A stretch of DNA of 64,000 nt, from assembly GCA_040388195.1 (NCBI GenBank), contig JAZKCF010000008.1, positions 1,831-65,830 of the forward strand, written 5' to 3'. A model generated the notes under the pieces. It made no database searches, had not been told where the DNA came from, and saw only the letters and a list, made by a program, of their open reading frames with translations. Position numbers and translations under genes: made by a program. Positions 4,551 to 63,592 of the stretch are shown here, in pieces. The stretch is from Pseudomonadota bacterium (GTDB taxonomy: Bacteria; Pseudomonadota; Gammaproteobacteria; Burkholderiales; DATLHW01). Position 1 is the first letter of the stretch, and every line of letters begins with the position of its first letter.

Positions 4551-5963
4551 ATGAATCCTGTCTGGATTATTGACGATGATCGCTCCATTCGCTGGGTGTT
4601 CGAAAAAGCACTTACTCGTGAAAATATCAACTTCAAAACATTCTCAAGTACAGAGGAAGCACTCATCGCGCTACGGTCATCATCGCCGCAAGTTGTCGTC
4701 AGCGATATTCGGATGCCAGGCGCATCCGGCCTCGATCTTCTACAAACGCTAAAAGAAAAAATACCGCATATGCCGGTCATCATCATGACGGCGTATTCCG
4801 ACCTTGAAAGTGCAGTGTCGGCCTTTCAAGGTGGCGCATTCGAATATCTACCCAAGCCATTCGATGTAGACCACGCAATCGAACTTATTCGCCGCGCGCT
4901 TGAAGATAGCGTGCGCAGCAACGAAGAAACATCCGTAGTAGAAACTATGCCTGATCTCCTCGGGCAAGCGCCTGCTATGCAGGAGGTGTTTCGTGCGGTG
5001 GGCCGACTGAGTCAATCACACGCAACTGTTTTGATTACAGGCGAATCGGGCACCGGCAAGGAGTTAGTGGCAAGAGCACTGCATCGCCATAGCCCGCGTG
5101 CCTCAAAGCCGTTTATTGCCATCAACACGGCGGCCATTCCCAAAGACTTGCTCGAATCAGAATTATTCGGCCATGAACGTGGCGCATTTACCGGTGCGCA
5201 ACAAATGCGGCGAGGCCGTTTTGAACAAGCCGATGGTGGGACATTATTCTTGGATGAAATCGGCGATATGCCTGCCGATTTACAAACGCGACTTCTGCGC
5301 GTGTTATCGGATGGTAAGTTCTATCGTATTGGCGGCCATCAACCTACCGGTGCCAATGTACGCGTCATTGCCGCTACCCATCAGGATTTGGAAGCACGGG
5401 TAAAACAGAATTTATTTCGCGAAGATTTGTTTCATCGCTTAAATGTCATTCGTTTACGCTTGCCTTCGTTGCGTGAACGACGTGAAGACATTCCAATCTT
5501 GGCACGTCATTTTTTGCAAAAGAGCGCGCAGGAACTAGGGGTGGATACAAAACGCCTCTCAGATACAGCGATGCAGTTCCTGCAAAAGCAGGACTATCCT
5601 GGAAATGTCCGTCAATTAGAGAATATTTGTCACTGGCTGACGGTCATGGCGCTCGGGCAAATTATAGAAGTTAAAGACCTTCCCCCAGAATTATTAAAAA
5701 CTGGTTCTGAAAACGTGGAAAGCAGTAGTTGGTATACGCTCTTGGAGCGAGAAGCGGCGAGAATGTTAGTTCACGGCGAAACCGGAATCATGGACGCCCT
5801 GACTCGTCAGTTCGAAAAATCTCTAATCACGCAAGCGTTACAACACACCGGCGGCCGCCGCATCGAAGCAGCGAACTTGCTTGGCATTGGGCGAAACACG
5901 CTGACTCGAAAAGTTCAAGAATTAGGACTGGACAATCGGGAGTCTCCAAATGAGTCAGACTGA
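4551..5963 (+). CDS. ntrC: sigma-54-dependent response regulator NtrC
   Basis: Receiver domain, AAA+ domain (GESGTGKE, GAFTGA) and a C-terminal Fis-type HTH. Confidence 0.93.
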   Translation: MNPVWIIDDDRSIRWVFEKALTRENINFKTFSSTEEALIALRSSSPQVVVSDIRMPGASGLDLLQTLKEKIPHMPVIIMTAYSDLESAVSAFQGGAFEYLPKPFDVDHAIELIRRALEDSVRSNEETSVVETMPDLLGQAPAMQEVFRAVGRLSQSHATVLITGESGTGKELVARALHRHSPRASKPFIAINTAAIPKDLLESELFGHERGAFTGAQQMRRGRFEQADGGTLFLDEIGDMPADLQTRLLRVLSDGKFYRIGGHQPTGANVRVIAATHQDLEARVKQNLFREDLFHRLNVIRLRLPSLRERREDIPILARHFLQKSAQELGVDTKRLSDTAMQFLQKQDYPGNVRQLENICHWLTVMALGQIIEVKDLPPELLKTGSENVESSSWYTLLEREAARMLVHGETGIMDALTRQFEKSLITQALQHTGGRRIEAANLLGIGRNTLTRKVQELGLDNRESPNESD

Positions 5964-23327: not shown

Positions 23328-23851
23328 GGATGCAAATGGCTAAAATTATTAAAGATAAGCAAATCGTCGAAGACCAATGGCTGACGATCAAATTAGGGGC
23401 TGAAGGCGCCTCGCCGGAAATTCCAGTGGCAGGAAATATCATCGTCCCGCTAAAACTCTGGTTGGCCAAAAAAGCGGAATTGCAACAACGTCAAGGACAA
23501 ACAGGAGTATGGCTCGATAGTAACGAAGAGCCCGCCCCATTAGCCGACGATCTGCCGAATTTACCTTTGATCGCCATCAATTTCCCGCAGTTTGCAGATG
23601 GACGTGGGTATTCGATTGCCCGATTGCTGCGTGAACGTTTTGGCTTCAAAGGAGAAATGCGCGCGATTGGCGATGTACTCCGCGACCAGATTTTTTATAT
23701 GCATCGCTGCGGTTTCAACGCTTTCGAAGTCCGCGCTGATAAAAGCATTGAAGATGCGCTTACCGCCTTTAACGATTTCTCTGATGGCTATCAAACCTCT
23801 GTGGATCAGCCGGTGCCTTATTTTCGCCGGCGGTTAAGCGGAGGCAATTAA
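23324..23851 (+). CDS. DUF934 protein (CysI-associated)
   Basis: 175 aa with FPQFADGRGYSIARLLRERFGF, translationally coupled to cysI. Confidence 0.75.
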   Translation: MRMQMAKIIKDKQIVEDQWLTIKLGAEGASPEIPVAGNIIVPLKLWLAKKAELQQRQGQTGVWLDSNEEPAPLADDLPNLPLIAINFPQFADGRGYSIARLLRERFGFKGEMRAIGDVLRDQIFYMHRCGFNAFEVRADKSIEDALTAFNDFSDGYQTSVDQPVPYFRRRLSGGN

Positions 23852-41360: not shown

Positions 41361-41436
<76 letters not shown>

Positions 41437-41592
41437 TCTCTTTCCTCGATGGCGCTCTTGTCGCTGGCAATTTTGTTTCAAAACACAGTCAACGCAATTA
41501 GCCTATTGTTGGTTTAGTCGTGCAGTAAGACATAAAACCAACAGTATCCACCTCTCGCCTCCATGGCGGCCCCAACCATCCGGGAGCCGCTC

Positions 41593-42471: not shown

Positions 42472-44030
42472 TGCAATCCAAACTTCCACCCTCTTCCCAG
42501 CCGGGGAAGCTTTCTCGCGAGGATATCAAAGCGAGACTCCGTCTAGCCGATCAACCCAAAGCATCGAAGGAAGCCGAGGACCCTGCTGGCGCGCAGTTTG
42601 TGTTGAATGTGATGCAGATTGGCGCCTATGACAAAAACCCTCGTCAATCTGTGTATGAGGACTTCGAATCACTTAAGGAAGGTATTCGTGAGCAGGGCTT
42701 CAATGGCGCTTTCCCTGTAACCCGTCGACCAGGCGATAACACCTACATGCTTGCGCAAGGTCACAATCAGCGACTTCGCGCAGTACAGGAGCTGTGGCAA
42801 GAAACCGCCGATCCGAAATTCCGCGATGTGCCGGTTGTGTACGTTCGATGGACTACGGAGAGCAACAATCTAGCCCGCCATCTCTCTGAAAACATGAATC
42901 GCAGCGATATGACCTTTTGGGATAAGGCCACTGGATTCCTGAATTTCAAGGAAACGCGCGAAGCCGAAATCGGCACGACGCTTACGCTCAGGAAATTAGA
43001 AGAAGAAACAAAGAAGGCCGGTATACAAACCTCGATTACCGCGTTGTCCTTCTTTCTATTTGCAGCCATCAAGCTAGCGGCACTTAGAACCGAGATACAC
43101 AACCAATTATCGCTGGAAGATATAAAAACGATCCAGCCAGCAGTTAATCGCTTCGCTGCAGTCTACAAAATCCTTGGTTTTGACGAGGGATGTTTTACCG
43201 ATGATGTTTTATCGATCGCCATAGATACGGTGAATCGAGAGTCCATTCATGAAAAGTGGTCAGCCAAAGGATTTATCACGGCGTGCGAACAGGCGCTTGG
43301 CAAAAAGACGCATACAAGCGCGGATCATGTCCGCGTGATGGTTGCCGTCAATGACCGATTTCCGTCCTTAAGCAAGGTTGAACTTCTCGAAGCGGCCCAA
43401 AATCCCAAGCCAGAGCCCTTGGTGAAAGCAGCTGCCCGACAACCCATTACAGAGGATCGGCCTACGCCAGCTACTCCACAACCTAGCGAAGCTATCAATG
43501 TAACAGCGCCCTCGCTCAGGCTTGGCGCGATTGGCCCGACAACAGAACCCACAACATCACAGGATATAAACGGAGCACAAAATCTGCTCGATCAAATATG
43601 GCGCCTCATCGAACAATTCGCCAAGGCCACAGAGATCACGGATTTGGTACGACAGACAGACTGCATGCCTGCCGGTTTCTACATGGAAGTACAAACAAAT
43701 GATGAACCGAATATCGATTTCGATCCCCGCGAATTCCGACATGCTGGCTGGTGGATGCTCGCCAGCATCTCCGGCCAACTAAATCGCAGTTTGAGTATCC
43801 GTTTGCCCGCAAACTCAACATGGCGGCGCGCCCATCAAAACGAAGATCCTGACCTAACGCTTGATTATCTGGTTCAAGAGCGACTAGGCATGTTCTGCTA
43901 TTTAACGACTGTGGCTCCATGGTTGATCGATCCAAGCCACGACATTGGCAGTATCTATTTTTCACTATTAAAAACTTTACGGGCATTGCGCGAAGCAGCG
44001 CCAGAACGATTTGCGGAGGTGTCGCAATGA
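42468..44030 (+). CDS. ParB-family protein, ICE (PFGI-1) class
   Basis: ParB/Srx-like N-terminal domain (YDKNPRQS...FPVTRRPG) with a long C-terminal extension, coupled to parA. Confidence 0.75.
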   Translation: MMQSKLPPSSQPGKLSREDIKARLRLADQPKASKEAEDPAGAQFVLNVMQIGAYDKNPRQSVYEDFESLKEGIREQGFNGAFPVTRRPGDNTYMLAQGHNQRLRAVQELWQETADPKFRDVPVVYVRWTTESNNLARHLSENMNRSDMTFWDKATGFLNFKETREAEIGTTLTLRKLEEETKKAGIQTSITALSFFLFAAIKLAALRTEIHNQLSLEDIKTIQPAVNRFAAVYKILGFDEGCFTDDVLSIAIDTVNRESIHEKWSAKGFITACEQALGKKTHTSADHVRVMVAVNDRFPSLSKVELLEAAQNPKPEPLVKAAARQPITEDRPTPATPQPSEAINVTAPSLRLGAIGPTTEPTTSQDINGAQNLLDQIWRLIEQFAKATEITDLVRQTDCMPAGFYMEVQTNDEPNIDFDPREFRHAGWWMLASISGQLNRSLSIRLPANSTWRRAHQNEDPDLTLDYLVQERLGMFCYLTTVAPWLIDPSHDIGSIYFSLLKTLRALREAAPERFAEVSQ

Positions 44031-44587
44031 AGCTCGCCATGTTCCCAGTAAATGACGTATCTGCCCGTTCCGTGCTTCTGCAAGAAATTTCACGGCGTAT
44101 CGAAAAAACCCAAATTAATGAATTGCAGACTAGCGGCCTTGATGTACCAACAATCGATCGGCTACGCGCTTTACCATATGGCACAGCCATATGTTTAGCG
44201 GACTTAGCGGCGGATTTGTTTTTTGTGGGAATCGATACCGGTCGATTGCATCTGCTGTTGGACGCTATGGAAGAGCGGAATCGAGCTGCGGCACTTCTCG
44301 AATACTACGTCGAGCACGGCGCCACGCTCACGATGATTCGCGCTTTGTTACGCCCTAGAAAGGACGTGCTCGCAGCCTACATCGAAAAGCTTTGCGGCGC
44401 CCTCCCTCGCGGCCGCCCGTCGCTTCCCGAAGTCACTATTCGCGATCGCATCCATGCAGTCTGGGCTGAGATTCAGAAATCCAAATTCGATCTCCCCGAA
44501 CGCGAGCGCCTCGTTGAGCTACATCGAGCGTTCTCTGTTTACAGCATGGCCACCCTCTACTCCGTCCTGAATGAGTTCAAGCGATGA
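44027..44587 (+). CDS. DUF2857-like ICE protein
   Basis: ATGA overlap with the parB stop, 186 aa. Position and size match DUF2857 in related islands; the assignment is from memory. Confidence 0.5.
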   Translation: MKLAMFPVNDVSARSVLLQEISRRIEKTQINELQTSGLDVPTIDRLRALPYGTAICLADLAADLFFVGIDTGRLHLLLDAMEERNRAAALLEYYVEHGATLTMIRALLRPRKDVLAAYIEKLCGALPRGRPSLPEVTIRDRIHAVWAEIQKSKFDLPERERLVELHRAFSVYSMATLYSVLNEFKR

Positions 44588-45048
44588 ATCAATACACAAC
44601 GACCCGCATCCCTTTCACTGCCACTCCCGCCAAGAACCCCAGCCATAGTCTGGGTCTTGATCCCGAACTGTTGCTGGAGTGGTTCCAAGCGCCTATTGCC
44701 TTTCATCGACCGTTGGTGGACTTAGCTGGCGGCAGCATTAGTGCCGCTGTCATGCTCACCCATGCCTTGCACGGGACGCGCGAGTTCTATTTTGCCGGCG
44801 AGTGCCATCCAAATTTGGCATTACAAGGTTTTATGCAAATGAGTCAGGTCGATTGGGAGCGTGAAACCGGACTTACTCGCTCGGCGCAAGAGACGGCACG
44901 ACGAATTCTCCGTAAACGCGGCTATCTCGAAGAAAAGCGCACCGGCATTCCAGCAAAGCTTTATTTCCGCGTGAATATTGAAAAACTATATGCGGATTTA
45001 AAAGCACAAGCGCGGAACCGCCTTAAAGAAGCTCATAGCAAACCATGA
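44584..45048 (+). CDS. island replication-like protein, one copy of a winged-helix-like module (STY4526-like?)
   Basis: 154 aa with the module PIAFHRPLVDLAGGSISAAVMLTHAL...RTGIPAKLYFRVNIEKL, shared with the next ORF. Confidence 0.45.
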   Translation: MNQYTTTRIPFTATPAKNPSHSLGLDPELLLEWFQAPIAFHRPLVDLAGGSISAAVMLTHALHGTREFYFAGECHPNLALQGFMQMSQVDWERETGLTRSAQETARRILRKRGYLEEKRTGIPAKLYFRVNIEKLYADLKAQARNRLKEAHSKP

Positions 45049-46469
45049 GGGACTTCCCAGTCCCTGGTGATCGAAAAGGTGTGTCGAATGCACTGACGAC
45101 GCTTTGGCCCCTTATCGGGCGGCCTGTCGCACTGCATCGTGGGCTGGTCGAACTGTGCGGCGGCGTCAAAACAGCCTTGATGTTGTCGCAAGCGATCTAC
45201 TGGACGCGCAAGGGAGTCGCCATTGCTGAAATGGATGGGTGGTTTCACAAGCGAATGGAAGACTGGCAATTAGAAATTGGCTTACGACGCCGCACACAAG
45301 AGCGCGCACGCAAGCACCTGCTTGCACTGGGCGTACTGGAGCAACGACTGCACGGACTACCAGCGCAGCTTGAGTTTCGAGTGAATCTTGAACAACTCGC
45401 AAACCTGCTTACAAAAGGTTCGGAAGCCGCTCAACCAATGCGCGAAATGATGTCGCTTTTCGGTGCGCCGCTTGCTTTTCATACCAGTCTTGCAAAGCTC
45501 ACCGATTCAGTTGCTGCCGGATTATTGCTTTCGAACCTACTTCATTTCACCCGACGACGCGTAATGGATGGCGTCGGCAATTTTGTTGAAATGCCATGGA
45601 TTGCGCTGGCGGCAACACGATGGATGGCTACCACCGGTTTATCACGACGAGAATTTGATGGTGCTAGAAACACCCTGCAGGCATTGGCGCTGATCACCGA
45701 ACGCCTACGCGGAATACCGCCAATTCTGGAAATGCGGGTGGAAATTATGGCGCTAGGGCGGCAATTAAGTCAGCAAATCCCCCAAAAAATGGGAAAACCC
45801 GTCAATTTGTACGTTTTGGACAACCAAGATTGCGAACAGCCCGCAATCACAGTTACCAACGACGCACATTCTAGTTTGTCCAAAATGTACAAATCAGATT
45901 GGCCGGAACACACAAAACAGGTTGGCCCAATCGCACAAAATGGTTTGGCCGAAAGCGCCAAAACATTATTAGATCTGACTACAGCTTTTAATACCTCTCT
46001 CTTACAACCACCTATTCAGGTAGAAACATCTACGCCCGCGACTACGCCGTGTGGTGGTGCGAACGATTCTTCTCTCATTTACCCCCACGTCCTCACATCG
46101 ATTGAGAAACAAGCTGTCAGTAACTTGCTAAGGAATGTTCAGCAAAAACACGCGCAGCTAATTCTCGACGAACTGGAGGGCAGATTACATCACGTTGGCG
46201 CGACAGGAATTCCCAATCGAGTGGGGTACGTGCGGCGATTACGCGACCTACATCTCGTTGGCGGCTTTGTACCGGAAACCGCATTGTCAGTTCAAGCGAC
46301 ACGTCTGCGGAAAACGGAAGAACGCGCCCGCCGCGTTATCGAAGCAGAAGACCGCGAAAAAGCAGCGGCTATCGCAGCAACGCCCGAAGCGAAGAAACGA
46401 CGCGAACAGGCTTTGGCCCAGACAAAAGCATTACTTGGCATTTCAGGAGCGGGGAGGAGCACCGCATGA
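45045..46469 (+). CDS. island replication-like protein, two copies of the same module (STY4528-like?)
   Basis: 474 aa containing two further copies of the module plus a basic C-terminal tail. Confidence 0.45.
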   Translation: MRDFPVPGDRKGVSNALTTLWPLIGRPVALHRGLVELCGGVKTALMLSQAIYWTRKGVAIAEMDGWFHKRMEDWQLEIGLRRRTQERARKHLLALGVLEQRLHGLPAQLEFRVNLEQLANLLTKGSEAAQPMREMMSLFGAPLAFHTSLAKLTDSVAAGLLLSNLLHFTRRRVMDGVGNFVEMPWIALAATRWMATTGLSRREFDGARNTLQALALITERLRGIPPILEMRVEIMALGRQLSQQIPQKMGKPVNLYVLDNQDCEQPAITVTNDAHSSLSKMYKSDWPEHTKQVGPIAQNGLAESAKTLLDLTTAFNTSLLQPPIQVETSTPATTPCGGANDSSLIYPHVLTSIEKQAVSNLLRNVQQKHAQLILDELEGRLHHVGATGIPNRVGYVRRLRDLHLVGGFVPETALSVQATRLRKTEERARRVIEAEDREKAAAIAATPEAKKRREQALAQTKALLGISGAGRSTA

Positions 46470-46488
46470 AAGCTAGCTACATGAAATG

Positions 46489-46553
46489 TGTTTACGCCGT
46501 AAACAAGAATTCGAGCAACCAATTCAAAGCAAATGTTGTTTACGCCGTAAACA
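46489..46553. promoter_or_regulatory. two copies of the 17-bp palindrome TGTTTACGCCGTAAACA (parS-like)
   Basis: Exact copies at 46489-46505 and 46537-46553, each preceded by AAATG. Confidence 0.6.
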
Positions 46554-46596
46554 GCCAACCAGTAATGATTCACCCATTCACCCACGCTGATGTTGC

Positions 46597-47733
46597 TTGC
46601 AGAGAGCCTGCCGCAACGACAATCGGAGACTTAATGTGAACCCGCACAAAATCGCAACGACCGCGCCCACAGAGCCGATGGAATTGATCGCTCAGCCAAT
46701 AGAAATTGCATCAACTTTGACGAGGTCTAACCAGCGCTCGCCGTTTTTTTCAGATGGCTATGACATCAACACCGAACGCGAAGCTCTCAAGGATTTATCT
46801 GAAAACCCAGATCCCGCTGATCCACGCTGGCCTCGATTCGTGGAACTACAAGAACGAGAGGAAGAACTGACGCAAATGCAGCGGCGACTTGAAGCACGCG
46901 CCGCCGCTGAACCAGTTGTTCCAGACCCTGAGGCACGTGGCATCCGCGAAGTGGGCCGCTTAGTCTCCGAAGAACAAGACCGGATGACATTGCACACGAA
47001 GGAAGCTTACCGGCTATTCATCGGCAAGGTGAATACCGGCGGCAAGAGCTTCGCTATCGCTGGAGGCAAACGCGTGGCTTCTGCCTTGCGATCGATTTAC
47101 TACCTGTCAAGCAATGACAACCCGTATGCCGACTGGGTCCTGGTGTCCTTCCAGCAAGGGCTGGACGAACTGCGCCAACTCATCGCACAAGAAACTGCCG
47201 CAAAGATGAAGCTGTTGAACGAACTGCGCCAACGCGGTTTGAGCTATTCCGTATTGCGCGCCGATCCGCCGAAGGATGTCGAGATTGGATTCAAGAGTCC
47301 ATACGGTTACGGCGTCGCCGAAATGCTGGTCGCGTTCGATTACTACGTGCGGCTCGCGAAAACTCTCGTTCGCAAAGATTTGTTGTCTGATCAAGATGGA
47401 TACGACGCGGTTCGGAAGGTCGCCCGTGTTGCACGGGCACTATTTTGGCAACCGGTTTCTTTCGAGCGGTATTTGATGCGGAAAGAACTGCAGCCACTGT
47501 CACGCGCCGATTGGCTGCCTGGCGCAAATGAATTAGCGGCGCAACGAGTACGGGCAGTTGTCGCGATATTCGGAGAGGTCCCAAGAGCAGTGTTTTCTGG
47601 CGCAGAAGCGCCACGACACAGTCGCCGGCGAGTGAATCTATCCGCAGAGGAACTGCGGCTATTAGAGACCATCGCATTAAATCCTGTATCGGTCGATACG
47701 GCGGACGATACCGCGATCAATCAACTGGTATGA
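46597..47733 (+). CDS. ICE protein, PFL_4669/TIGR03761-like
   Basis: 378 aa in the conserved position after the replication-like genes. The start is uncertain (TTG 46597, GTG 46636 with GGAGA upstream, ATG 46678). Confidence 0.5.
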   Translation: MQRACRNDNRRLNVNPHKIATTAPTEPMELIAQPIEIASTLTRSNQRSPFFSDGYDINTEREALKDLSENPDPADPRWPRFVELQEREEELTQMQRRLEARAAAEPVVPDPEARGIREVGRLVSEEQDRMTLHTKEAYRLFIGKVNTGGKSFAIAGGKRVASALRSIYYLSSNDNPYADWVLVSFQQGLDELRQLIAQETAAKMKLLNELRQRGLSYSVLRADPPKDVEIGFKSPYGYGVAEMLVAFDYYVRLAKTLVRKDLLSDQDGYDAVRKVARVARALFWQPVSFERYLMRKELQPLSRADWLPGANELAAQRVRAVVAIFGEVPRAVFSGAEAPRHSRRRVNLSAEELRLLETIALNPVSVDTADDTAINQLV

Positions 47734-47746
47734 AGTGGATTGTGTA

Positions 47747-48235
47747 ATGAACTCGATTGAGAGCGTAACGCTTTGTCAACAACGTGTTGACACAAAGGGT
47801 TTCAAGGGTAAGGGGGGCGTGGAAACCTGGGTCAGAAATGTGGTGAGCCGATTGAATGCTGTTCGTGAGGATATGGCGGCGTTGGCATCCGCGAGCAACC
47901 AGGTGGCGCCGCGTTACTTCCACCTGCAACTACATGCGCGAAGCGCTACCGGTAGTCTCTCGCTACGCTGGCGATTTACCACAGGAAAACATGCGCTATG
48001 GAAAGACTTGGCGCCGCACTTAACCGGCGTGCCCCAACGAATCGCTGATTGGTATCGCGCCGCGAATGAGGAAGCGGAACTGCTGAATGCGATGGAGCAA
48101 GCTTTACGCGCGGAACTCAGGATGGCGGAGCGACTGGCTATCCGAATGGGAGTTGGGCAGCAATGGCAACGGGAAACCGGATTGCGGTCATCGATAGTTT
48201 CGGTAGGCCAGCAAGAACCGAACCGAAAGCGTTGA
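47747..48235 (+). CDS. DUF3158-like ICE protein
   Basis: About 162 aa immediately upstream of ssb, as in related islands. Confidence 0.45.
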   Translation: MNSIESVTLCQQRVDTKGFKGKGGVETWVRNVVSRLNAVREDMAALASASNQVAPRYFHLQLHARSATGSLSLRWRFTTGKHALWKDLAPHLTGVPQRIADWYRAANEEAELLNAMEQALRAELRMAERLAIRMGVGQQWQRETGLRSSIVSVGQQEPNRKR

Positions 48236-48322
48236 CGAACATTTTGAAATTTAAGTGCGGACAATTATTTGAAGACGTTTCACGGGCAACGGGGTAATTC
48301 AACTTACTGATTGGAGAACACC

Positions 48323-48727
48323 ATGAGCAATGAATTTCGTGGCAATGGCAATCTTGCCGAGAATCCCGCTATCAAAACCGTCACCGTGGATGGCGAGGAG
48401 CGAAAGTTGGCCGAGATGCGTATCTTCTTCGACCGGCTTCGGCAGGATGGTGATGGCGGCCTCGCCGACAAGGGCGGCTTTTGGCTTGATGTGACGGCAT
48501 GGGGCAATGATCTCGCCGAGCGTTGCGGCAAGCTACTTCGCAAAGGTGCGCGGCTCCATGTGGTGGGTGAACTGCAACAACAGAAATGGACAAGTAAAGA
48601 ATCGGGTGAGGAAAAAAACGCGATGCAGCTTAATGCGAGCGAGGTGTACCTCGGCCTCTCACGCGTTGAGTCGGTGACTTACAAAGAACGTAAAACCGCA
48701 GCGGAGCGGGACTCCGAAGCGGCCTAA
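48323..48727 (+). CDS. ssb: single-stranded DNA-binding protein (short, no acidic tail)
   Basis: OB-fold pattern NEFRGNGNLAENP...FWLDVTAWGNDLAERC...GARLHVVGELQQQKW. GGAGAA RBS before the ATG at 48323. Confidence 0.85.
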   Translation: MSNEFRGNGNLAENPAIKTVTVDGEERKLAEMRIFFDRLRQDGDGGLADKGGFWLDVTAWGNDLAERCGKLLRKGARLHVVGELQQQKWTSKESGEEKNAMQLNASEVYLGLSRVESVTYKERKTAAERDSEAA

Positions 48728-48747
48728 GACGTTGAGAGGGATCGCCT

Positions 48748-49002
48748 ATGACAACGCAAAGGACGACACCTTCCATCGCGCATGCCGAATTACGAATGCT
48801 GCAAGGTATCGCCGCAACTATCGTGATGGATGCGGCTAACAACATTGGTGTTTCGCGATGCCGATTTGGTCGCTTCGAACTAACCGCGCAGCGCTTCGGA
48901 AATACTGAGGTACAGGACAAGGTGACGATGGAACTCATGGTCACCTATGCCGGCGAGATTATCGAATATGACAGAGGACACATTCCTCGCCGTTCAATTT
49001 AA
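48748..49002 (+). CDS. hypothetical protein
   Basis: 84-aa ORF, same strand and close spacing after ssb. Confidence 0.4.
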   Translation: MTTQRTTPSIAHAELRMLQGIAATIVMDAANNIGVSRCRFGRFELTAQRFGNTEVQDKVTMELMVTYAGEIIEYDRGHIPRRSI

Positions 49003-49028
49003 ACACATTTGAAAGGAGACGGATTGCT

Positions 49029-49385
49029 ATGAACAGTTTATTTGGCACGCCACAAGCTTTCGTTATATCGCTCTTCATTTTTATTGCCACTGTCTCGATT
49101 GGTTATCGCGTTTCCGCATTATTAAAAGACGGCGACGTGATTGTAAATAAAACACCTATCGGCAATGTCGAAAAGGTCGAATTTTTAAAACCGTTGACTT
49201 TCTTTGGTTCTGATACGCAAACCGTTATTACAACTGAAAAAGGATCGTTCTTAATCCAAGGCGCTGCGTCTCCCAAAAACGATATGCCACTTGAAAAGCA
49301 GATTATGAAAAGCGGCAATACCCGGATTTGCGATTCTTCTATCTGCTGGTGGATGGTTGAGGATGGTGTACCGCAATCAAAATGA
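49029..49385 (+). CDS. hypothetical membrane-anchored protein
   Basis: 118 aa with one N-terminal TM segment (FVISLFIFIATVSIGY). AGGAGA RBS upstream. Confidence 0.45.
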   Translation: MNSLFGTPQAFVISLFIFIATVSIGYRVSALLKDGDVIVNKTPIGNVEKVEFLKPLTFFGSDTQTVITTEKGSFLIQGAASPKNDMPLEKQIMKSGNTRICDSSICWWMVEDGVPQSK

Positions 49386-49540
49386 TCATTGGACGAGATG
49401 TCGGTGTCGACGTTACCGAGATTGCGCGAGAGTTAATGGCAACTCTGTAAACAATACGCGTGTGAAACAATCAGTCGCCGATCACGTTTAATAATTGCCA
49501 CTTGCGGACCGCGATATCGTGCTGGCGCTATGCCTGCTTC

Positions 49541-49572
49541 AGACTCTTATGTATAGCTATATATAAGAGTCT
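49541..49572. repeat. 32-bp near-perfect palindrome
   Basis: AGACTCTTATGTATAG|CTATATATAAGAGTCT, with 15 of 16 arm positions complementary. Confidence 0.8.
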
Positions 49573-49592
49573 ACGGCGGTCATGGCTGTGAT

Positions 49593-49656
49593 ACATAACG
49601 TAGAGTTGAGGAGACTGCGCGGCTTTTTGCGCAACTCCCTCGAACGCCCGTTTAGC
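49593..49656 (-). repeat. attC-like site A (64 bp)
   Basis: Minus strand reads GCTAAAC-GGGC-GTTCGAGGGAGTTGCGC...GCGCAGTCTCCTCAAC-TCTAC-GTTATGT. The TAA stop of the upstream ORF lies inside the first box. Confidence 0.55.
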
Positions 49657-50086
49657 TGGCACGAACTGGGAAGGACTCGGTAACAAGGCTAAGTTCTGCA
49701 AGGGTTTTCTGCAACTGCGTTTGATCTAAGGTTAATTCGAACACGAGACGATTGCCGGTGCCTGGTATGTCTATTGCCGTGCCCTTAAGAAGTATTTCCC
49801 CACGGCCATTTCCATGAAGCAGCAGCGACAATTGCTCCTCCATTGTGGAAAACTTTGCTATACCGTTCAACGAGCGATACAGCTCGATAAGCTGGTTATG
49901 AAAACTTACTAATTCCTCTGTAAGGAACGCGGCGTCATACTTGCCCGAGAACGCGCCAGAGACAACCAACACACGGACACGAAGCCAGTTGTCGTCGAAA
50001 TATTCTCCGACGGGGTTACGCTTATAACCAACCACTTGCACTTCAATGCGCTCGCGACTGTTGCTGCCGATGGAAAATGATGACAT
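49652..50086 (-). CDS. cassette ORF 6, hypothetical (144 aa)
   Basis: ATG at 50086 (MSSFSIGS...), 8 nt after the GTTAGCC box. The track start at 50137 reads through the attC-like site. Confidence 0.55.
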   Translation of the reverse strand: MSSFSIGSNSRERIEVQVVGYKRNPVGEYFDDNWLRVRVLVVSGAFSGKYDAAFLTEELVSFHNQLIELYRSLNGIAKFSTMEEQLSLLLHGNGRGEILLKGTAIDIPGTGNRLVFELTLDQTQLQKTLAELSLVTESFPVRAS

Positions 50087-50094
50087 GGATTGAC

Positions 50095-50184
50095 GGCTAA
50101 CGGCCCAATTGAAGGACGCCCGCCCCGATGCTTGCATTAAGAAGTAACATTATTCGCTCACCGCTTTCGAATATAGTGTTAGAG
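50095..50184 (-). repeat. attC-like site B (family 2, 90 bp)
   Basis: Minus strand reads CTCTAAC-ACTAT-ATTCGAAAG...CCTTCAATT-GGGCC-GTTAGCC. It shares the blocks CGCCCCGATGCTT and AACATTATTCGC with sites C and E. Confidence 0.6.
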
Positions 50185-50571
50185 CGCATTTTCATACACA
50201 GCCGGCTCATTGCGGCAAATTACTGAAACGCAGTCATTTCCACCGGCAACCAAACACTCCTTGGCTTCGGGATTCATTGCAGAGATAAGACTTCCTTCTC
50301 GGTTGGCTTCTTGTGATAACCAACCTCCCCCTGTGACCTCAAACAACCCACCATTAGGTGTTGAGCATTCCGGCCAATATTCTAGGAGGTCACGTTCATC
50401 GAGAACGCGAAAACCGATTGTGTCGATAAATTCAACGACCAATGCCGTGGCATTCTCAGCGCCTTGCACACGAATAGATAGCCTTCCAAGCCCGTATTCG
50501 AGCCCATTCACTTCTGAGCCACGAGGGAAGGAAACCTTTGAGTTCAGTGGCCGAGCCGAAACTTTAGCCAT
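50179..50571 (-). CDS. cassette ORF 5, hypothetical (130 aa)
   Basis: In-frame ATG at 50571 (MAKVSARPL...) just after the GTTACGG box. The track start at 50619 is a GTG inside the attC-like site. Confidence 0.5.
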   Translation of the reverse strand: MAKVSARPLNSKVSFPRGSEVNGLEYGLGRLSIRVQGAENATALVVEFIDTIGFRVLDERDLLEYWPECSTPNGGLFEVTGGGWLSQEANREGSLISAMNPEAKECLVAGGNDCVSVICRNEPAVYENAL

Positions 50572-50579
50572 GGCATGCG

Positions 50580-50671
50580 CCGTAACGGATAAATTGAAAG
50601 GTTCGTCCGCCTCGAACACCTTTCAAAAAAAGTGGGTTCATCGGCCGGTGCCTTTCGAACGCCCGGTCAGC
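50580..50671 (-). repeat. attC-like site C (family 2 relative, degenerate first box)
   Basis: Minus strand reads GCTGACC-GGGCG-TTCGAAAGG...CCTTTCAATTTATCC-GTTACGG. Its 5' arm is shared with site A and its 3' arm with sites B and E. Confidence 0.45.
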
Positions 50672-50681
50672 AGTATTTGGG

Positions 50682-51101
50682 CTACTTCTTACCATGGGGA
50701 AAATTGAGTTGCTCAAACATTAGACGATTATATTCGGAGACATACTCTTGAAGTGCATTCAGACGTTGGGAAGCTTCTTCCCCGAGAAGTGTTTCACAAG
50801 AAGGGCCGAATTTCTTAACGCCCTGCTTCCAAGGCGGCTCAATCTTTGAAACGTCACCTGCGGGAACAGAATATCCGAGGATCATATCATTGCACTGAAC
50901 TACCGAAAGATAACGTTTATCCCCAGACTTTAGCGCATCTGCGACCGCTTCCTTTGGTGGTACCTGGAGTAGTATTTTTTCGTCCAGGGTAGGTTGCTGC
51001 GACCATCCAGACGTAGCAAAAAGCACGGCAAGAATCGTAACTTTGGAACGAATCATAAGATTGCTAACGCATCGACGTAAGCGATTAGCCAGCGCGTTCA
51101 C
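50682..51101 (-). CDS. cassette 4, second ORF: hypothetical N-terminally anchored/secreted protein
   Basis: 139 aa with a hydrophobic N-terminus (VTILAVLFATSGW). It overlaps the upstream ORF by 4 nt. Confidence 0.5.
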   Translation of the reverse strand: MNALANRLRRCVSNLMIRSKVTILAVLFATSGWSQQPTLDEKILLQVPPKEAVADALKSGDKRYLSVVQCNDMILGYSVPAGDVSKIEPPWKQGVKKFGPSCETLLGEEASQRLNALQEYVSEYNRLMFEQLNFPHGKK

Positions 51102-51580
51102 TCGCGAACTCCTTTGCGAAACTGCTCGTAGGTGTACCAGGCCGCATCAGGAGCTGCGTGGATCTCAATGGGAAACCGGGGCTGACCAGCGAGTGCCTTG
51201 TTGAGAGCAGTAAAGAAGTCGTCTTCCGACCGCGCATAGAAGGTCCATTCGCGCAGGTTCTCGCCTGTTGACACCAGAACAAGCACGCTGGCTCCTGACT
51301 TTTCGACGAGTGGTGCAAGTAGATCTTCCATGCGATCCATTGCTTCGCGCTCCTTGGGCGCTGGCATGCCCGAATCGGACTTGTACTTCCACACGATAAT
51401 AACGCGATCAGGGAAGGTCGACCGCTGAAACCCCTGAAGGAACGACTTGGCGTACCGAAAGACTATTGTGCGTTCAGTTCCCTGTTGCTTGGAGACAGCG
51501 GTTGCCCACTCTGTGATTTCCGCTGACGAGACGGGAAGAGAAAGCAAGGCGACAAGAACGAAGGCAAGAATACGCTTCAT
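51098..51580 (-). CDS. cassette 4, first ORF: DUF695-like protein with signal peptide
   Basis: 160 aa with the signal peptide MKRILAFVLVALLSLPVSSA and the pattern IVWKYKSDSGMP...REAMDRMEDLL recalled from DUF695. Confidence 0.55.
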   Translation of the reverse strand: MKRILAFVLVALLSLPVSSAEITEWATAVSKQQGTERTIVFRYAKSFLQGFQRSTFPDRVIIVWKYKSDSGMPAPKEREAMDRMEDLLAPLVEKSGASVLVLVSTGENLREWTFYARSEDDFFTALNKALAGQPRFPIEIHAAPDAAWYTYEQFRKGVRE

Positions 51581-51593
51581 ATAACGGCTAGCC

Positions 51594-51673
51594 GATTAAC
51601 GTAACAGGCGCACGACGGAAAATCGAGCAGAGAAAGAACGATTATCGGCGCGTCCTGGTTCACGAGGTTAGGC
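51594..51673 (-). repeat. attC-like site D (family 1, 80 bp)
   Basis: Minus strand reads GCCTAAC...GTGAACCAGGACGCGCC...CGTCGTGCGCCTGTTAC-GTTAATC. The arms are near-identical to site F. Confidence 0.65.
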
Positions 51674-52090
51674 TTTAGCATAGAACTTGACGATCTCTTG
51701 CTCCCGCTCGTTGGCCGAGATGTGTAGTACGAGAGTTTGCGTCAACTCGACATTTGGATGGAATGCGTTATTCTTGCAGAACCAGAACACTTCAGCCATC
51801 GTCTCGTCTTCGTGCCATGTCGTCATGACGAACTTGTTCTCCGGAATCTCTTTGAAATTGAACTCCTCGATATTGGCCATGTCCACCGAGTCATCCCATG
51901 AACTGCAGTTCGTTCCCCATGCCATAGTGTAAAGACATCCGGACTGCACGAGCCAGACGCTAACCGACGCTTGCCAGTCCGGGGACACCTCGGCCTCCGC
52001 TACGATGACTGCGCGAAATGGAGCGAGGGTAGAGATGTCTGGCAATACAGCTCCCATTGGCGCCAGATGCAGATAGGTGGGTGGTGACAT
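51668..52090 (-). CDS. cassette ORF 3, hypothetical (140 aa)
   Basis: ATG at 52090 (MSPPTYLHL...), 3 nt after the GTTAGGC box. The TAA stop lies inside the GCCTAAC box of site D. The track start (TTG 52207) reads through site E. Confidence 0.55.
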   Translation of the reverse strand: MSPPTYLHLAPMGAVLPDISTLAPFRAVIVAEAEVSPDWQASVSVWLVQSGCLYTMAWGTNCSSWDDSVDMANIEEFNFKEIPENKFVMTTWHEDETMAEVFWFCKNNAFHPNVELTQTLVLHISANEREQEIVKFYAKA

Positions 52091-52093
52091 GAA

Positions 52094-52181
52094 GCCTAAC
52101 GAAATTGAGAGGGGCGCGCCCCGATGCTTCCTTGAAAAACCAACATTATTCGCGCGTCCTTTCTCGAATGGGGTGTTAGAT
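52094..52181 (-). repeat. attC-like site E (family 2, 88 bp)
   Basis: Minus strand reads ATCTAAC-ACCCC-ATTCGAGAAAGG...CCCTCTCAAT-TTC-GTTAGGC. Both boxes match RYYYAAC and GTTRRRY exactly. Confidence 0.7.
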
Positions 52182-52238
52182 TGGAGAGCAACCATACGAT
52201 GTTGCAATCACATTTTTTCGTTACTTCATCTGTATTTG

Positions 52239-53204
52239 TCAAGTGTTGTTGGATGAGGTGTCTTCGCACTCATAAGGGCCAAACATTTCAATACCAGACG
52301 CGGCAGTTACTGGTAGGCTTACTTGTAGCTCATCTACATCCACCAATCGTCTGCGCAGCGAAAAGCTATCACGAACTTCGTGCATTTCATAAAACCGAAC
52401 TTCCTTTTCGCGCCCCTCTATAGCCTTGATCACTGAATGTATGATTGATGGCGGACAGCGAAGACCGAAAACAACCTCAGTTAGAAGTAACGGAGAGTCT
52501 TGTAGACCTTGCTTGCCGATCAAGCGCCATTCGGACTCATATTTCCAGCCACTCGCCTTTCGAAGCAATACATCTCGGTCCAAATCCACCATAGCCTTTT
52601 CGGCGTTATGCAGGAACGCATCACAAAGTATTGAAGTTCTAATTGCGCGACTACCTCCATAGATAACTTTTTGCAACTGAGGGACAGGATTACGCTTTGT
52701 GCTGTATCCGATACAAATTCCTTGGTGCTGATCACCATAGTGGCTCCAAAGAAGAGGATTTGAATACGATGTGGAGAAACAGCAAACACCTCTTTCATAC
52801 CAACGGCGCAACTCACACTCAATAGCTTGCATTAGTAACCAGGACTCGTTTTCTTCCAATGCTCCCTCGTAGTCTGGATTCGTCGCGTTGTAGGCTATGT
52901 TGGCCAGCTCATTTTCTGTCTCACGTCGGGCTCTCTTCGTTGCGTGCTCACTGGCAGTATTTCCTCTTATACGAGCATGGCTCAAATGGGAAAGCACTTC
53001 GGATGAAACTCTCTTGCTAAAGAAAAAAGCAAGAAGCTTTCTGAGATCATCATTATTGGAGTCACAACTGAGTGTTGGGCTACAGTCTAGGGGATCATTA
53101 AACGCGCCGGGATGAGAAAAGAAAAGAGTGTCATAGCATAGTGAATCCAGCGTTGTCGTACTAAACGCGCGATAACGGTAGAAAGTCTTGGGTTGGTTTG
53201 TCAT
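52239..53204 (-). CDS. cassette ORF 2, DUF2971-like protein
   Basis: 321 aa. The N-terminal FYRYRAFS...TLDSLCYDTLFFSHPGAFNDPLDC is typical of DUF2971. Confidence 0.6.
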   Translation of the reverse strand: MTNQPKTFYRYRAFSTTTLDSLCYDTLFFSHPGAFNDPLDCSPTLSCDSNNDDLRKLLAFFFSKRVSSEVLSHLSHARIRGNTASEHATKRARRETENELANIAYNATNPDYEGALEENESWLLMQAIECELRRWYERGVCCFSTSYSNPLLWSHYGDQHQGICIGYSTKRNPVPQLQKVIYGGSRAIRTSILCDAFLHNAEKAMVDLDRDVLLRKASGWKYESEWRLIGKQGLQDSPLLLTEVVFGLRCPPSIIHSVIKAIEGREKEVRFYEMHEVRDSFSLRRRLVDVDELQVSLPVTAASGIEMFGPYECEDTSSNNT

Positions 53205-53235
53205 GAAACTTGGTTTTGTAATCGTTGAGTCTAAC

Positions 53236-53318
53236 GATTAACGTAACAGGCGCACGACGAAATGCTAAGCAGAGAAGGAGCGATTATTCGTGCGTCCTGG
53301 TTCACGACTGAGTTAGAG
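53236..53318 (-). repeat. attC-like site F (family 1, 83 bp)
   Basis: The first 24 nt (plus strand GATTAACGTAACAGGCGCACGACG) are identical to site D. The distal arm TGCGTCCTGGTTCACGA is also shared, and the centre is variable. Confidence 0.65.
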
Positions 53319-53585
53319 TTGCGTTTGGATTGCATAGACAACAAACCTCTCACCATTCAAATCGATAGTTTTGCACCAGACATTCTTTCGGTTGGGGACT
53401 TCAGCAAACTCACCACCGTGTGCCTTTTGAGACAACTCTTTTTTCAGCGGCGGCGAGAGACCAGGAAGGGCGTTCTCTGGTAAGTCACCAGACCAACTTG
53501 AAACGAACCCTTTAAAGTTACTGTAACTACCTTGCGCAACATAGGTCGAGTCTCTGAAAGAGGCAATGTATGTATAGAGTGGCAT
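53313..53585 (-). CDS. cassette ORF 1, hypothetical (90 aa)
   Basis: The ATG at 53585 lies 5 nt after a perfect GTTAGAT core (53591-53597). The stop is next to site F. Confidence 0.5.
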   Translation of the reverse strand: MPLYTYIASFRDSTYVAQGSYSNFKGFVSSWSGDLPENALPGLSPPLKKELSQKAHGGEFAEVPNRKNVWCKTIDLNGERFVVYAIQTQL

Positions 53586-54253
53586 TGAAAATCTAACAGT
53601 GTTTATACGGACCCGTCGATCTGTATATCAATTATTAATAATGACAGCCATTATGCGTCGTACATTATTGATCTACAACATGGGATCAGTTTTTGCATCT
53701 CTATAAAAACCTCAATATTGGGGGCGCGACGAAGCGTAAAACTTCAATTAGGGTTCTCTGCTTTTTCATAAGAAGTGACAATCTTATGGGATGAATCGGT
53801 TAATCCCCTACACTTGCGTGATCAACACTCCATCGTTTGACGGGAAGCACGGACCGGGTTCGGCACGAACGGCCGCATTAGGAACTGTACTTCTGCGGTC
53901 GCTTTGATCGGGTATTGCCTGATCGTTGAAAAGCGATGCGTTCGGTTCCGCTGCATTGCTACCATCGAGTCGTGTGAGTACGATATACCACTGTGGCACG
54001 AAGTTGCTGATCGACAAAGGCAACATGCCAGAAGATATTCCCATGGATGAAGTAACGCTCTCCAAGATAATCGAATGTCGCAAAGCAATTATGCATGTCA
54101 GCACGCTTGTCACAATCGATCCGTTACTAGATATAAAATGGTTGAGAAAACCTCATAATCTGCCTTGACAACGAATTCGATCAGTGTACGATTTAAAGTG
54201 TTCTTCGTTAGCTGAGTCAGCTCGCCTCACATGCGCAAAGTGTGGCCTTTAAA

Positions 54254-54301
54254 GCCGTGAGACCCCTGGTAGGAACGGCATAACCGCAAGGTTTGGGGTA
54301 A
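54254..54301 (+). other. type I conserved pseudoknot-forming element, copy 1
   Basis: GCCGTGAGACCCCtggtaggAACGGCatAACCgcaaGGTTtGGGGTAA. Pairings are CCGT/ACGG and ACCCC/GGGGT, with an inserted GCAA-tetraloop hairpin. Confidence 0.6.
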
Positions 54302-54634
54302 TGAGTCATTCACCATCAGACGAGAAATCATTTCTCGTTACTAGCACGATGCATTTGATTTCTCTTTGAGAAAGTATCGTGCCGATCATTTGCACGATTA
54401 CCAATCGACTACAGCATTGAAGAAAGTCGTACGTCCACGTAATGGCGATCACGATATTTTTTCCGGCTTGAAAACGATGTGACGTTCCTCGTTTATAGCC
54501 GCGTTACTCACCTTGACCGGTGATGCATTGTCGCAGTCGATTCATCGTTTCACACCCCTGTCCGGGAGGCTTTTGTCTCCCCTTGGGGCGACATGACCTC
54601 CCTTTTTTTGTTTGTCATTAGAAAGGAGATGTTC

Positions 54635-55782: not shown

Positions 55783-55827
55783 ACCGTGAGACCCCTCGAA
55801 AGAACGGCGGGCGCAAGCCTGGGGTAA
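55783..55827 (+). other. type I conserved pseudoknot-forming element, copy 2
   Basis: ACCGTGAGACCCCtcgaaagAACGGCgGGGCgcaaGCCTGGGGTAA, preceded by the hairpin GCACGTTT-cggac-AAACGTGC. Confidence 0.6.
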
Positions 55828-57006: not shown

Positions 57007-57052
57007 GCCGTGAGACCCCTTGAAAGAACGGCTGGCGATTAGCCTGGGGTAA
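57007..57052 (+). other. type I conserved pseudoknot-forming element, copy 3
   Basis: GCCGTGAGACCCCttgaaagAACGGCtGGCgattaGCCTGGGGTAA, preceded by the hairpin AACGTC-cgtta-GACGTT. Confidence 0.6.
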
Positions 57053-62202: not shown

Positions 62203-63078
62203 TTATACTGGGCGTTTTGAGTTCGTCAAGTAACAATTCTGGAGCAATGGGGACTTGTAATAGTCCTCATCGAGGAACCGAAGAATTGTCTTCAAATCTT
62301 TCTTGGTCTCCGGTATTAGAATTTTCTCAGTTCCTTCGCTTATCGTTGTTTGAAGTTGGATGCTGAATTCTGCCGCAACTGCTTTAATGTCACACACAGG
62401 TACTTTTTGCAATATTTGACTCTGTGATATTAGCCACAACTTCCGGCGCACCCAGGTATCTGAAACGGCTACCAGATTGGTGGCGTTAGTAACATGGACA
62501 CAAGGCAAACTTGCAAATTGCTGGATGTCTCCGTCTGTTGCCTCTTTGTAATAGGCAGACACGTCAAAAATTTGCCTTAACAAATGGAAGCTTTGAAATT
62601 TAAGTACGCCTGCACGAATGATAGCGGTAAGTTTGCTATCTATAGTAAGTCCGATCCCCTCTATCTTTTTGTAGACATTTGATGAGTGAAAAATAGATAG
62701 CCCATTTGTTGAAATTACTCGCTTTTTGTCAAAGTGCTGCAGAAGTACGACAGGCAATCCATCTTGACCGACATATCCAGAAAATAAGGCCTTTATCGTA
62801 TTGAATGCCTCAGGGATAGGGGCTACCTCTGGAACAGAAAGAGGATGCGCTACTGCATCGGCTAGCTCATCGATATCATCAAACTCGCCAATAGTCAAAA
62901 CCTCGCCAAAATCTGGCTTATATTTTCCGTCAAACGGGATTTCGTCGTGACCATTGCTGTTGAAGCTAGACTCTTGCTGCTGCAGTAGCTCGGTTAAATC
63001 CCTCTGCACCTCATTTGACAAAGAAAATCGGAGGCGACGCGTTGCAGGATCATCGGTTAATGCAAAGAGATTAAACAC
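62203..63078 (-). CDS. KwaB-like (DUF4868-like) protein, Kiwa-type defence candidate
   Basis: 291 aa cytoplasmic protein 4 nt downstream of a 4-TM protein. The C-terminal LKTILRFLDEDYYKSPLL resembles my recollection of KwaB. Not verified. Confidence 0.45.
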   Translation of the reverse strand: MFNLFALTDDPATRRLRFSLSNEVQRDLTELLQQQESSFNSNGHDEIPFDGKYKPDFGEVLTIGEFDDIDELADAVAHPLSVPEVAPIPEAFNTIKALFSGYVGQDGLPVVLLQHFDKKRVISTNGLSIFHSSNVYKKIEGIGLTIDSKLTAIIRAGVLKFQSFHLLRQIFDVSAYYKEATDGDIQQFASLPCVHVTNATNLVAVSDTWVRRKLWLISQSQILQKVPVCDIKAVAAEFSIQLQTTISEGTEKILIPETKKDLKTILRFLDEDYYKSPLLQNCYLTNSKRPV

Positions 63079-63082
63079 CGTT

Positions 63083-63592
63083 TTAGTCCTCTATGAGCAT
63101 GGTTTCGGATAGTTTTTTTACATACTTTACTTCTGTTGGATCTCTTATTTCTCGCTTGGATATCAACGTATAAACCATACCGGTAGATGATTCTAATTTG
63201 TAAAACTTAAACTTAAGTACTCTAAGCAGAGGATGCGCAGGTAATGAGCTCATGAGCCAGAGAAGTCCACCGGTAATGGCTAGAACACCTGCTATAGCAT
63301 TCACTGATATTTCAGCGCCTCTTAAGATTAGTGGAAGCAAATAACTTCCAACGAATGCTAATAACATAAAATCGCTTGATTCTATTTTTTTAGCTTGGAT
63401 ATGGAATGACTCGCCTTGATCCTTGACGAGCTTAATTATTGCGATTGGAATCATGGAGCCGAGAAAACCAATTATGAGCAACTGAAGGACATCAGTTCGC
63501 CAGCCGTAGATTTCATACCTAACGTATGCCATTGTTATAAGGGCTGGCGAAAAGGCAGAGATAAATAAGAGAGTTCGGAGCCAGTTACGCAT
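63083..63592 (-). CDS. KwaA-like four-TM membrane protein
   Basis: 169 aa with four predicted TM helices and a roughly 45-aa cytoplasmic tail. AT-rich codon usage differs from the flanks. Confidence 0.45.
   Translation of the reverse strand: MRNWLRTLLFISAFSPALITMAYVRYEIYGWRTDVLQLLIIGFLGSMIPIAIIKLVKDQGESFHIQAKKIESSDFMLLAFVGSYLLPLILRGAEISVNAIAGVLAITGGLLWLMSSLPAHPLLRVLKFKFYKLESSTGMVYTLISKREIRDPTEVKYVKKLSETMLIED

Follow-up and report, generated by a model that had tools for sequence, protein, structure and literature searches.

A window of 64,000 nucleotides (the whole stretch of DNA that was analyzed here; contig JAZKCF010000008.1 of assembly GCA_040388195.1, positions 1,831 to 65,830 of the forward strand) from a betaproteobacterial metagenome-assembled genome (MAG) contains two related repeats, designated site D and site F. 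They are very probably attC sites of one sequence family. The array to which they belong has no integrase of its own, i.e., it is a cluster of attC sites that has no integron-integrase (CALIN), and it is carried as cargo by an integrative and conjugative element (ICE) of the PFGI-1/SPI-7 type. attC sites are imperfect palindromes that close integron gene cassettes on their 3′ side; such cassettes measure about 0.4–1.5 kb, and their ORFs usually lack a promoter.

Both repeats were recovered by exact matching. The 24-nt arm GATTAACGTAACAGGCGCACGACG was found on the plus strand at 51594 and 53236 (chance expectation from shuffled sequences, 0), and no third match with up to 3 mismatches was present across the 64-kb window. 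For the distal arm GCGTCCTGGTTCACGA, exact copies were present at 51650 and 53292 (chance expectation, 0.44). A repeat search returned the pair as 73 nt with 85% identity (repeat family D1), and the DNA flanking the two ~90-bp sites was unrelated. A previous reading of this stretch, made from the sequence only, had described two copies with these arms, unrelated flanks, and a variable center. Exact matching and sequence comparison bore out the copies, the arms, and the flanks. The variable center was correct for the first ~8 nt past the 5′ arm, where the divergence of D and F is clustered (GAAAATCG vs. AAATGCTA), but not for the remainder, AGCAGAGAA.GA.CGATTAT, which is conserved in both D and F and, in part, also in the metagenomic copies described below.

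Family members beside integron integrases

The two-arm pattern, with the center left free, had no match among 185,579 representative genomes, and the 21-mer arm had none in viral contigs. The pattern was found at five sites in four JGI metagenome contigs; because of an overlap between two of these contigs, the number of independent sites is four. According to BLAST, the ~80–90-bp site alone is common to the window and the metagenome contigs (82–88% identity), the flanks being unrelated. Each metagenomic copy is located directly 3′ of an open reading frame (ORF) on the opposite strand. One of the contigs (L003) contains three attC-like sites within 1.1 kb.

Another contig, L002, provides the link to an integron integrase. 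It ends within the start of a gene that is divergent from the array. The 101 residues available match TIGR02249 (“integron integrase”) with an E-value of 6.8e-34, and the fragment stays under the full-length cutoff of this family solely because the contig ends. It also matches the structure of VchIntIA/IntI4 (PDB 2A3V; E 1.1e-21). The array of L002 combines a family-1 site (597–692) with a site of a second family (family 2) that is related to site E of the window. Since both families occur beside this integrase, family 1 is present in a bona fide integron.

With the L002 integrase fragment as the query, 80 genome loci carrying related intI genes (58–76% identity) were retrieved. The closest of them (70–76%) belong almost entirely to Betaproteobacteria, namely Gallionellaceae, Sideroxydans, Nitrosomonadales, Methylophilaceae, Burkholderiales, and Azonexus. 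A covariance model (CM) of family 1, designated R1, was searched in these 80 loci at E < 1 and returned 36 sites. The bottom strands of attC sites are expected on the intI-sense strand, upstream of intI. All 36 of the 36 sites were on the intI-sense strand, at lower coordinates than (upstream of) intI. The family-2 site in the L002/L005 integron array scored 52.3 bits with the same model.

A broader attC model, R2, was built from 55 such matches and run unfiltered over the whole window. Its matches within the array were all on the plus strand, with scores of 77.1 bits for site F, 45.4 for D, 43.1 for E, 20.7 for A, and 19.7 for B. Outside the array, R2 matched 23375–23469 (plus strand; 21.3 bits, E 0.005) inside ORF 23324–23851 of a sulfate-assimilation gene cluster; this match is almost certainly a false positive and marks the noise level. 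A hairpin scan (YAAC...GTTR combined with constrained DNA folding) returned nothing at strict thresholds and ~80 matches, mostly intragenic, at loose ones. Rfam gave no family for the attC sites either at the gathering threshold or at E ≤ 1.

Anatomy of sites F and D

In the canonical layout of an attC site, an R box is followed by an unpaired central spacer, then by an L box that bears extrahelical bases, and finally by a terminal structure of variable form. The inverse cores at the two ends, RYYYAAC (R″) and GTTRRRY (R′), are able to pair. Site F (53225–53320, minus strand) is a full, canonical attC site, with scores of 106.7 bits for R1 and 77.1 bits for R2. On the plus strand, its elements are arranged in the order TCTAAC-GATTAA-CGTAACAGGCGCACGA...TCGTGCG(T)CCT(G)GTT(C)ACG-ACTGA-GTTAGA. 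The R′ box TCTAAC (53228–53233) is followed by the unpaired spacer GATTAA and by the L box and stem CGTAACAGGCGCACGA. The R″ box GTTAGAG (53312–53318) holds the stop codon (TTA, 53313–53315) of ORF 53313–53585. The minimum free energy fold of site F as single-stranded DNA (ssDNA) has the canonical attC shape, with a 6-bp R box and a 6/5-nt unpaired spacer (GATTAA/ACTGA), and is more stable than shuffled sequences (z −3.3). On the cassette strand, the inverse cores CTCTAAC ... GTTAGAC of the R″ and R′ boxes are paired over 6 bp.

The stem of site F contains three bulged bases (C, G, and T), exclusively on the 3′ arm of the plus strand, and R2 gave just 12.8 bits on the minus strand vs. 77.1 bits on the plus strand. 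Since the bulges are confined to the 3′ arm, the plus strand of the window is the bottom (recombinogenic) strand of site F. The minus-strand cassette ORFs are therefore in the standard orientation, in which the top strand shares the sense of the ORF. The borders of the site had to be revised. The sequence-only reading had begun it ~8 nt too late on the R′ side, which left the outer R box outside, and had taken GATTAA for the R′ box. In F, this motif is the unpaired spacer; the real box, TCTAAC, pairs with GTTAGA at 53312–53317.

Site D (51582–51675, minus strand) belongs to the same family and is a defective variant. It scored 80.1 bits with R1 and 45.4 bits with R2. Its R″ box GTTAGGC (51667–51673) includes the stop codon of an ORF of the DUF7684 family. 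In the R2 alignment, D departs from the family by one additional nucleotide and by the loss of 3 nt from the 3′ spacer. D and F share a derived A at a position where all metagenomic copies have G, and this indicates that they are each other's closest relatives.

Alignment A1, consisting of six distinct family-1 sites (D, F, and the four metagenomic ones), was scored against the canonical structure. In total, 88.5% of the cells were paired, compared to 29–40% when the partners were slid by 1–3 columns. Compensatory changes were seen in eight pairs, and the observed values were not reached in any of 500 shuffles of the columns. The covariation was located in the R box and the inner stem (e.g., a stem pair that is A-T in F and G-C in the metagenomic copies); the long central stem was almost invariant and hence uninformative. 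Covariation from these six sequences backs the attC structure and is supportive rather than conclusive.

The cassette array and the element that carries it

The array extends over 4 kb (49.6–53.6 kb) and consists of about six minus-strand cassettes, with an imperfect palindrome after every ORF or ORF pair. It contains five firm attC sites in the order F, E, D, B, and A, as well as a weak site C, at 49.6–53.3 kb. All of them are on one strand, and F, E, and D are spaced by 0.5–1.1 kb. Sites F and D are of type 1, E and B of type 2, and A and C possibly of type 3; the pairwise identity is 47–81%. All window sites and metagenomic copies follow an ORF on the strand opposite the bulged strand, i.e., they are at ORF 3′ ends with fixed polarity. 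A stop codon within the R″ box is common in cassettes, and four of the cassette ORFs have this arrangement (those at sites F, D, B, and A).

At the start of the first cassette, an isolated R′-type core (53593–53599, minus strand; ATCTAAC on the plus strand, GTTAGAT on the cassette strand) precedes the ATG of ORF 53313–53585 by 7 nt. This ORF encodes 90 aa with no family match and is followed by site F. A candidate site G at 53593–53700 was rejected, as it consisted of just the R′-type core; the neighboring AT-rich palindrome had no CM score. The next cassette ORF (52239–53204, minus strand) encodes a DUF2971 protein of 321 aa (Pfam E 1.8e-09) and is located between F and E. It matches the PADLOC candidate defense family PDC-S31 with an E-value of 2.8e-43, so that this could possibly be a single-gene defense cassette. 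Site E (52090–52183, minus strand; family 2, R2 43.1 bits), with R′ GCCTAAC and R″ GTTAGAT on the plus strand, is 75–78% identical to site B (repeat D4).

The DUF7684 ORF (51668–52091, minus strand; Pfam E 9.8e-59) is followed by site D. Its homologs have a length of ~139 aa and cover 77–80% of a longer ORF in the window, which makes the ATG at 52091, 6 nt past the R′ box of site E, the likely start codon of the gene. Homologs with 69–76% identity are themselves cassettes in other contigs. One of them (L090) is flanked on both sides by strong attC sites in a five-site array of 1.9 kb, and another (L086) is located right behind an attC site of 64 bits. The attC types at these homologs differ from family 1 (55–72% identity), as expected for a mobile gene pool. 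In two further contigs (L087, positions 5183–5689, from Logan SRR10520223; L089), a single attC-like site (23.7 bits) overlaps the stop codon of a lone DUF7684 gene, which has sucD on one side and further housekeeping genes on the other. The arrangement resembles one cassette inserted into the chromosome at a secondary site.

Between D and the weak site C, there is a two-gene unit (50682–51580, minus strand), formed by a DUF695 gene (51098–51580) and a 139-aa ORF (50682–51101) that overlap by 4 nt. Candidate site C (50576–50674, minus strand) is degenerate, with an R2 score of 8.8 bits (E 0.88 within the array). Its R′ box CCGTAAC is present, and its R″ box reads GGTCAGC instead of starting with GTT. 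It has the correct position and strand, between two cassette ORFs, and its 3′ arm resembles that of site A. ORF 50179–50619 (minus strand) encodes at most 146 aa (130 aa according to the gene call in contig L001, see below) with no family match and is followed by site B (50091–50186, minus strand), a more degenerate member of family 2. Site B scored 19.7 bits with R2 (E 0.013 over the whole window and 0.0011 within the array), has R′ GGCTAAC and R″ GTTAGAG on the plus strand, and includes the stop codon of this ORF in its R″ box.

The last ORF (49652–50137, minus strand) encodes a WapI-like immunity protein of 161 aa (Pfam PF24716, E 7.6e-26). It is followed by site A (49589–49659, minus strand), which is of a short type and the last of the array. 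Site A scored 20.7 bits with R2 (E 0.0075 over the whole window and 0.00062 within the array). It has R′ ACATAAC and R″ GTTTAGC on the plus strand, the latter including the stop codon of the WapI ORF, and an ssDNA fold with z −2.2. Sites E, B, and A all keep the AAC/GTT cores. All cassette ORFs are intact. When eight proteins of the cassette region were compared by tblastn with 84 fetched loci, nothing was found at E 1e-3.

Two further observations concern the ends of the array. A palindrome, AGACTCTTAT(11 nt)ATAAGAGTCT, is located at 49541–49575, just past site A at the distal end. Contig L001 (Logan SRR26324621; 9803 bp) corresponds to positions 43850–53652 of the window at 100% identity and, being identical, is not independent evidence. 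This public assembly breaks off at 53652, inside AT-rich palindromic DNA upstream of the first cassette.

The search for an integrase extended 49 kb leftward and 10.7 kb rightward from the array. Among 40 ORFs compared with Pfam (nearly all ORFs of at least 250 aa), there was no tyrosine recombinase and no PF00589. The L002 fragment and eight IntI proteins of full length, obtained from the fetched loci, were compared with the window by tblastn, and the best E-value was 0.9. A complete integron, with intI, attI, and Pc adjoining the cassettes, is not present at the array. A promoter and terminator scan of the array gave counts equal to those in shuffled sequences, and none of the sites was called a terminator. 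According to Cury et al. (2016; PMC4889954), two or more attC sites form a CALIN when they share a strand, are separated by less than 4 kb, and have no intI in their vicinity. Given the spacing and common strand of its attC sites and the absence of intI, the array falls under this published definition.

The left 41 kb of the window are ordinary chromosome with glnA, ntrBC, dxs, argG, ileS, ispH, and pil genes. They end at a tRNA-Thr(CGT) gene (41361–41436, plus strand), directly after which the ICE backbone begins; this gene probably served as the attachment site of the array-bearing ICE. Judging by gene content, the stretch after the tRNA gene (41437–64000) belongs to a partial ICE of the PFGI-1/SPI-7 type, mapped at 41563–64000, which runs off the window; its integrase and conjugation genes did not appear in this part. 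Before the array, its genes are in the order ParA, ICE-type ParB, DUF2857, a PFL_4669-family protein (TIGR03761, 131.6 bits vs. a cutoff of 110.7), and SSB. After the array, they are STY4534/DUF3577, DUF7673, DUF3275, RadC, a DUF6094 methyltransferase, an SNF2 helicase, and Kiwa. Since ICE genes are present on both sides, the array belongs to the cargo of this ICE. ArgG of the MAG is 86–87% identical to those of Sulfuricella, Sulfurimicrobium, and Rhodocyclales. This similarity identifies the host as a betaproteobacterium, from the same broad clade as the closest relatives of the L002 integrase.

The ICE cargo also includes a complete Kiwa anti-phage system (62203–63592, minus strand), consisting of KwaA (63083–63592) and KwaB (62203–63078), with PADLOC E-values of 1e-71 and 5e-104, respectively. 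A second repeat family, unrelated to attC, was found on the plus strand at 54255–54279, 55784–55808, and 57008–57032, each copy extending for ~50 nt. The core, CCGTGAGACCCCTnGnArGAACGGC, is followed by ...GCCTGGGGTAA; there are three exact copies of the core, with 0 expected by chance. Each copy is located upstream of a plus-strand ICE gene (STY4534/DUF3577, DUF3275, and RadC, respectively). The repeat is predicted to form a CCGT/ACGG hairpin with additional ACCCC/GGGGT pairing, a pseudoknot-like arrangement. Rfam 15 gave no match to it, even with E-values up to 1 allowed. One possibility is a cis-regulatory RNA or an ssDNA element of this ICE family that has not been described before.

Mode of action, alternative explanations, and related systems

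By analogy with established integron biology, the plus strand, i.e., the bottom strand of the attC sites, would fold into a hairpin at each site once it is single-stranded. In this hairpin, the unpaired spacer would set the R box apart from the L box, and the extrahelical bases of the 3′ arm would mark the strand. An integrase supplied in trans could then bind the hairpin and cleave AA|C in the R′ box, and a unit of ORF and attC site would be excised or re-inserted. We infer that the cassettes derive from betaproteobacterial integrons and that sites F and E, perhaps also B and A, have kept the ability to recombine.

Several observations weigh against this interpretation of the sites and the array. 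In site D, which has the same arms as F, the R′ core reads CTAGC instead of CTAAC on the plus strand (GCT instead of GTT on the cassette strand), so that the conserved GTT triplet (AAC on the bottom strand) of the R′ box is absent. In integrons, the GTT/AAC triplet contains the cleavage point, and site D is therefore probably impaired. D is derived from an attC site and is probably decaying, its recombination presumably being impaired by the change from GTT to GCT in the core and by the spacer indels. The ssDNA folds of D, E, and B are no more stable than those of shuffled sequences (z −0.6, +0.2, and −0.2, respectively), and the R box of D is paired over only 3 bp. The assignment of A and B rests partly on their position, because their scores equal the off-target noise level. 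To the right of the core at 53593–53599, neither an attI-like nor an attC partner was detected, and R2 had no match on the plus strand in 53600–54600. Finally, the donor integron is known just from short metagenome contigs, as 0 of the 185,579 representative genomes contain the exact two-arm pattern.

An alternative is that the array is an inert relic, i.e., a set of decaying sites that were once borne by an integron and on which no integrase acts, with mRNA hairpins perhaps as the sole remaining function. We consider this possible but doubtful. The defects of D, with its lost GTT core, would be explained in this way, as would the degenerate state of C (8.8 bits) and B (19.7 bits) and the lack of both intI and a pseudo-intI within 64 kb; moreover, Cury et al. 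(2016; PMC4889954) reported that genomes devoid of IntI contain half of the CALINs. An array in general decay is difficult to reconcile with site F, which is canonical and full-scoring (77–107 bits), with site E (43 bits), both of which have intact AAC/GTT cores, and with the intactness of every cassette ORF.

Explanations that dispense with integrons altogether fit the data poorly. D and F are short imperfect palindromes in intergenic positions with no match to an Rfam family, as would also be true of repetitive extragenic palindromic elements, miniature inverted-repeat transposable elements (REP/MITE), or other dispersed palindromic repeats. Such an origin is largely refuted and very improbable: all six distinct copies are immediately 3′ of an ORF with fixed polarity, the family adjoins an integron integrase in L002, the CM sites in the 80 loci are one-stranded and located only upstream of intI, and the 64-kb window has no copies outside the array. 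The sequence-only reading had itself named repeats scattered regardless of ORF ends as the finding that would speak against it, and the opposite was observed, since all copies are at ORF 3′ ends and have the same polarity. Equally improbable is a role as intrinsic transcription terminators or as stabilizing hairpins of 3′ untranslated regions that were duplicated along with gene ends. The hairpins do directly follow stop codons; still, no T-run is present behind the sites, the terminator scan called none of them, the flanking gene ends are unrelated, and the asymmetric bulges, the conserved AAC/GTT outer boxes, and the strand asymmetry of the CM scores (77 vs. 13 bits) are not features of terminators. 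Structure, position relative to ORFs, independent copies, and association with an integrase thus agree with the earlier assignment of D and F to the attC type, as opposed to a duplicated gene segment or a REP/MITE element.

A more far-reaching variant of the CALIN interpretation is that the ICE-borne array acts as a cassette shuttle, spreading integron cassettes among betaproteobacteria without carrying an integrase. Folded attC bottom strands entering by conjugation are the substrate in laboratory assays of attC recombination. An ICE is transferred as ssDNA, and if the plus strand were the one transferred, the attC bottom strands would fold upon entry into the recipient. A resident IntI, SOS-induced by the incoming ssDNA, might then move the cassettes, including the PDC-S31-like one, into the integron of the recipient. 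We regard this scenario as unlikely.

Taken as a CALIN on an ICE, the array belongs to a known kind of element. The finding is ordinary in this respect and leaves the understanding of integrons unchanged. It provides a well-documented example of a combination that was seen in just one case among the ICEs surveyed by Cury et al. (2017; PMC5587801). It also adds a new attC sequence family, tied to betaproteobacterial-type integron integrases of environmental metagenomes, with a covariance model that generalizes to real integron arrays. The candidate phage-defense cassette (PDC-S31-like) fits the view of integron cassettes as reservoirs of defense genes. These results can be used for the annotation of the source MAG, and the array is a possible test case for the trans-mobilization of ICE-borne cassettes.

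The CALINs described by Cury et al. (2016; PMC4889954) resemble the array of the window in having attC sites that share a strand, with neither intI nor a pseudogene of it within 10 kb, in their small size (5–6 sites in the window), and in cassette functions that are unknown or unrelated to resistance; the array of the window differs in being located on an ICE. Four possible origins of CALINs were listed by these authors: integration at secondary sites, loss of intI, rearrangement, and genesis of cassettes independent of intI (PMC4889954). The chromosomal integron arrays of Betaproteobacteria (e.g., L069; L009 from Azonexus sp. R2A61; L055; L048 from Methylophilaceae) have the same attC architecture and the same polarity with respect to intI. 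Their sites are recognized by the family-1 model at 30–57 bits and form a sequence family distinct from that of the window.

A homogeneous attC family had been taken in the sequence-only reading as a hallmark of a host-specific chromosomal integron. This argument does not apply as stated, because at least three attC types alternate in the array, which moreover lies on an ICE. Sedentary chromosomal integrons are long homogeneous arrays at a fixed chromosomal locus, unlike the 5–6 mixed sites on an ICE beside tRNA-Thr. Vibrio cholerae repeats (VCR) are similar to the window sites in that repeated attC sites are more alike mutually than to the sites of other integrons, and their substrate is likewise a folded bottom strand with extrahelical bases (VchIntIA-VCR, 2A3V, the structure to which the L002 integrase was matched). 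The VCR form long homogeneous arrays that adjoin intIA, whereas the array of the window is short, contains at least three attC types (51–81% identity), and has no integrase. ICEs of the SXT family also carry integron cassettes, as does the ICE described here; theirs, however, belong to complete integrons with their own intI, whereas the cassettes of the window are carried without one.

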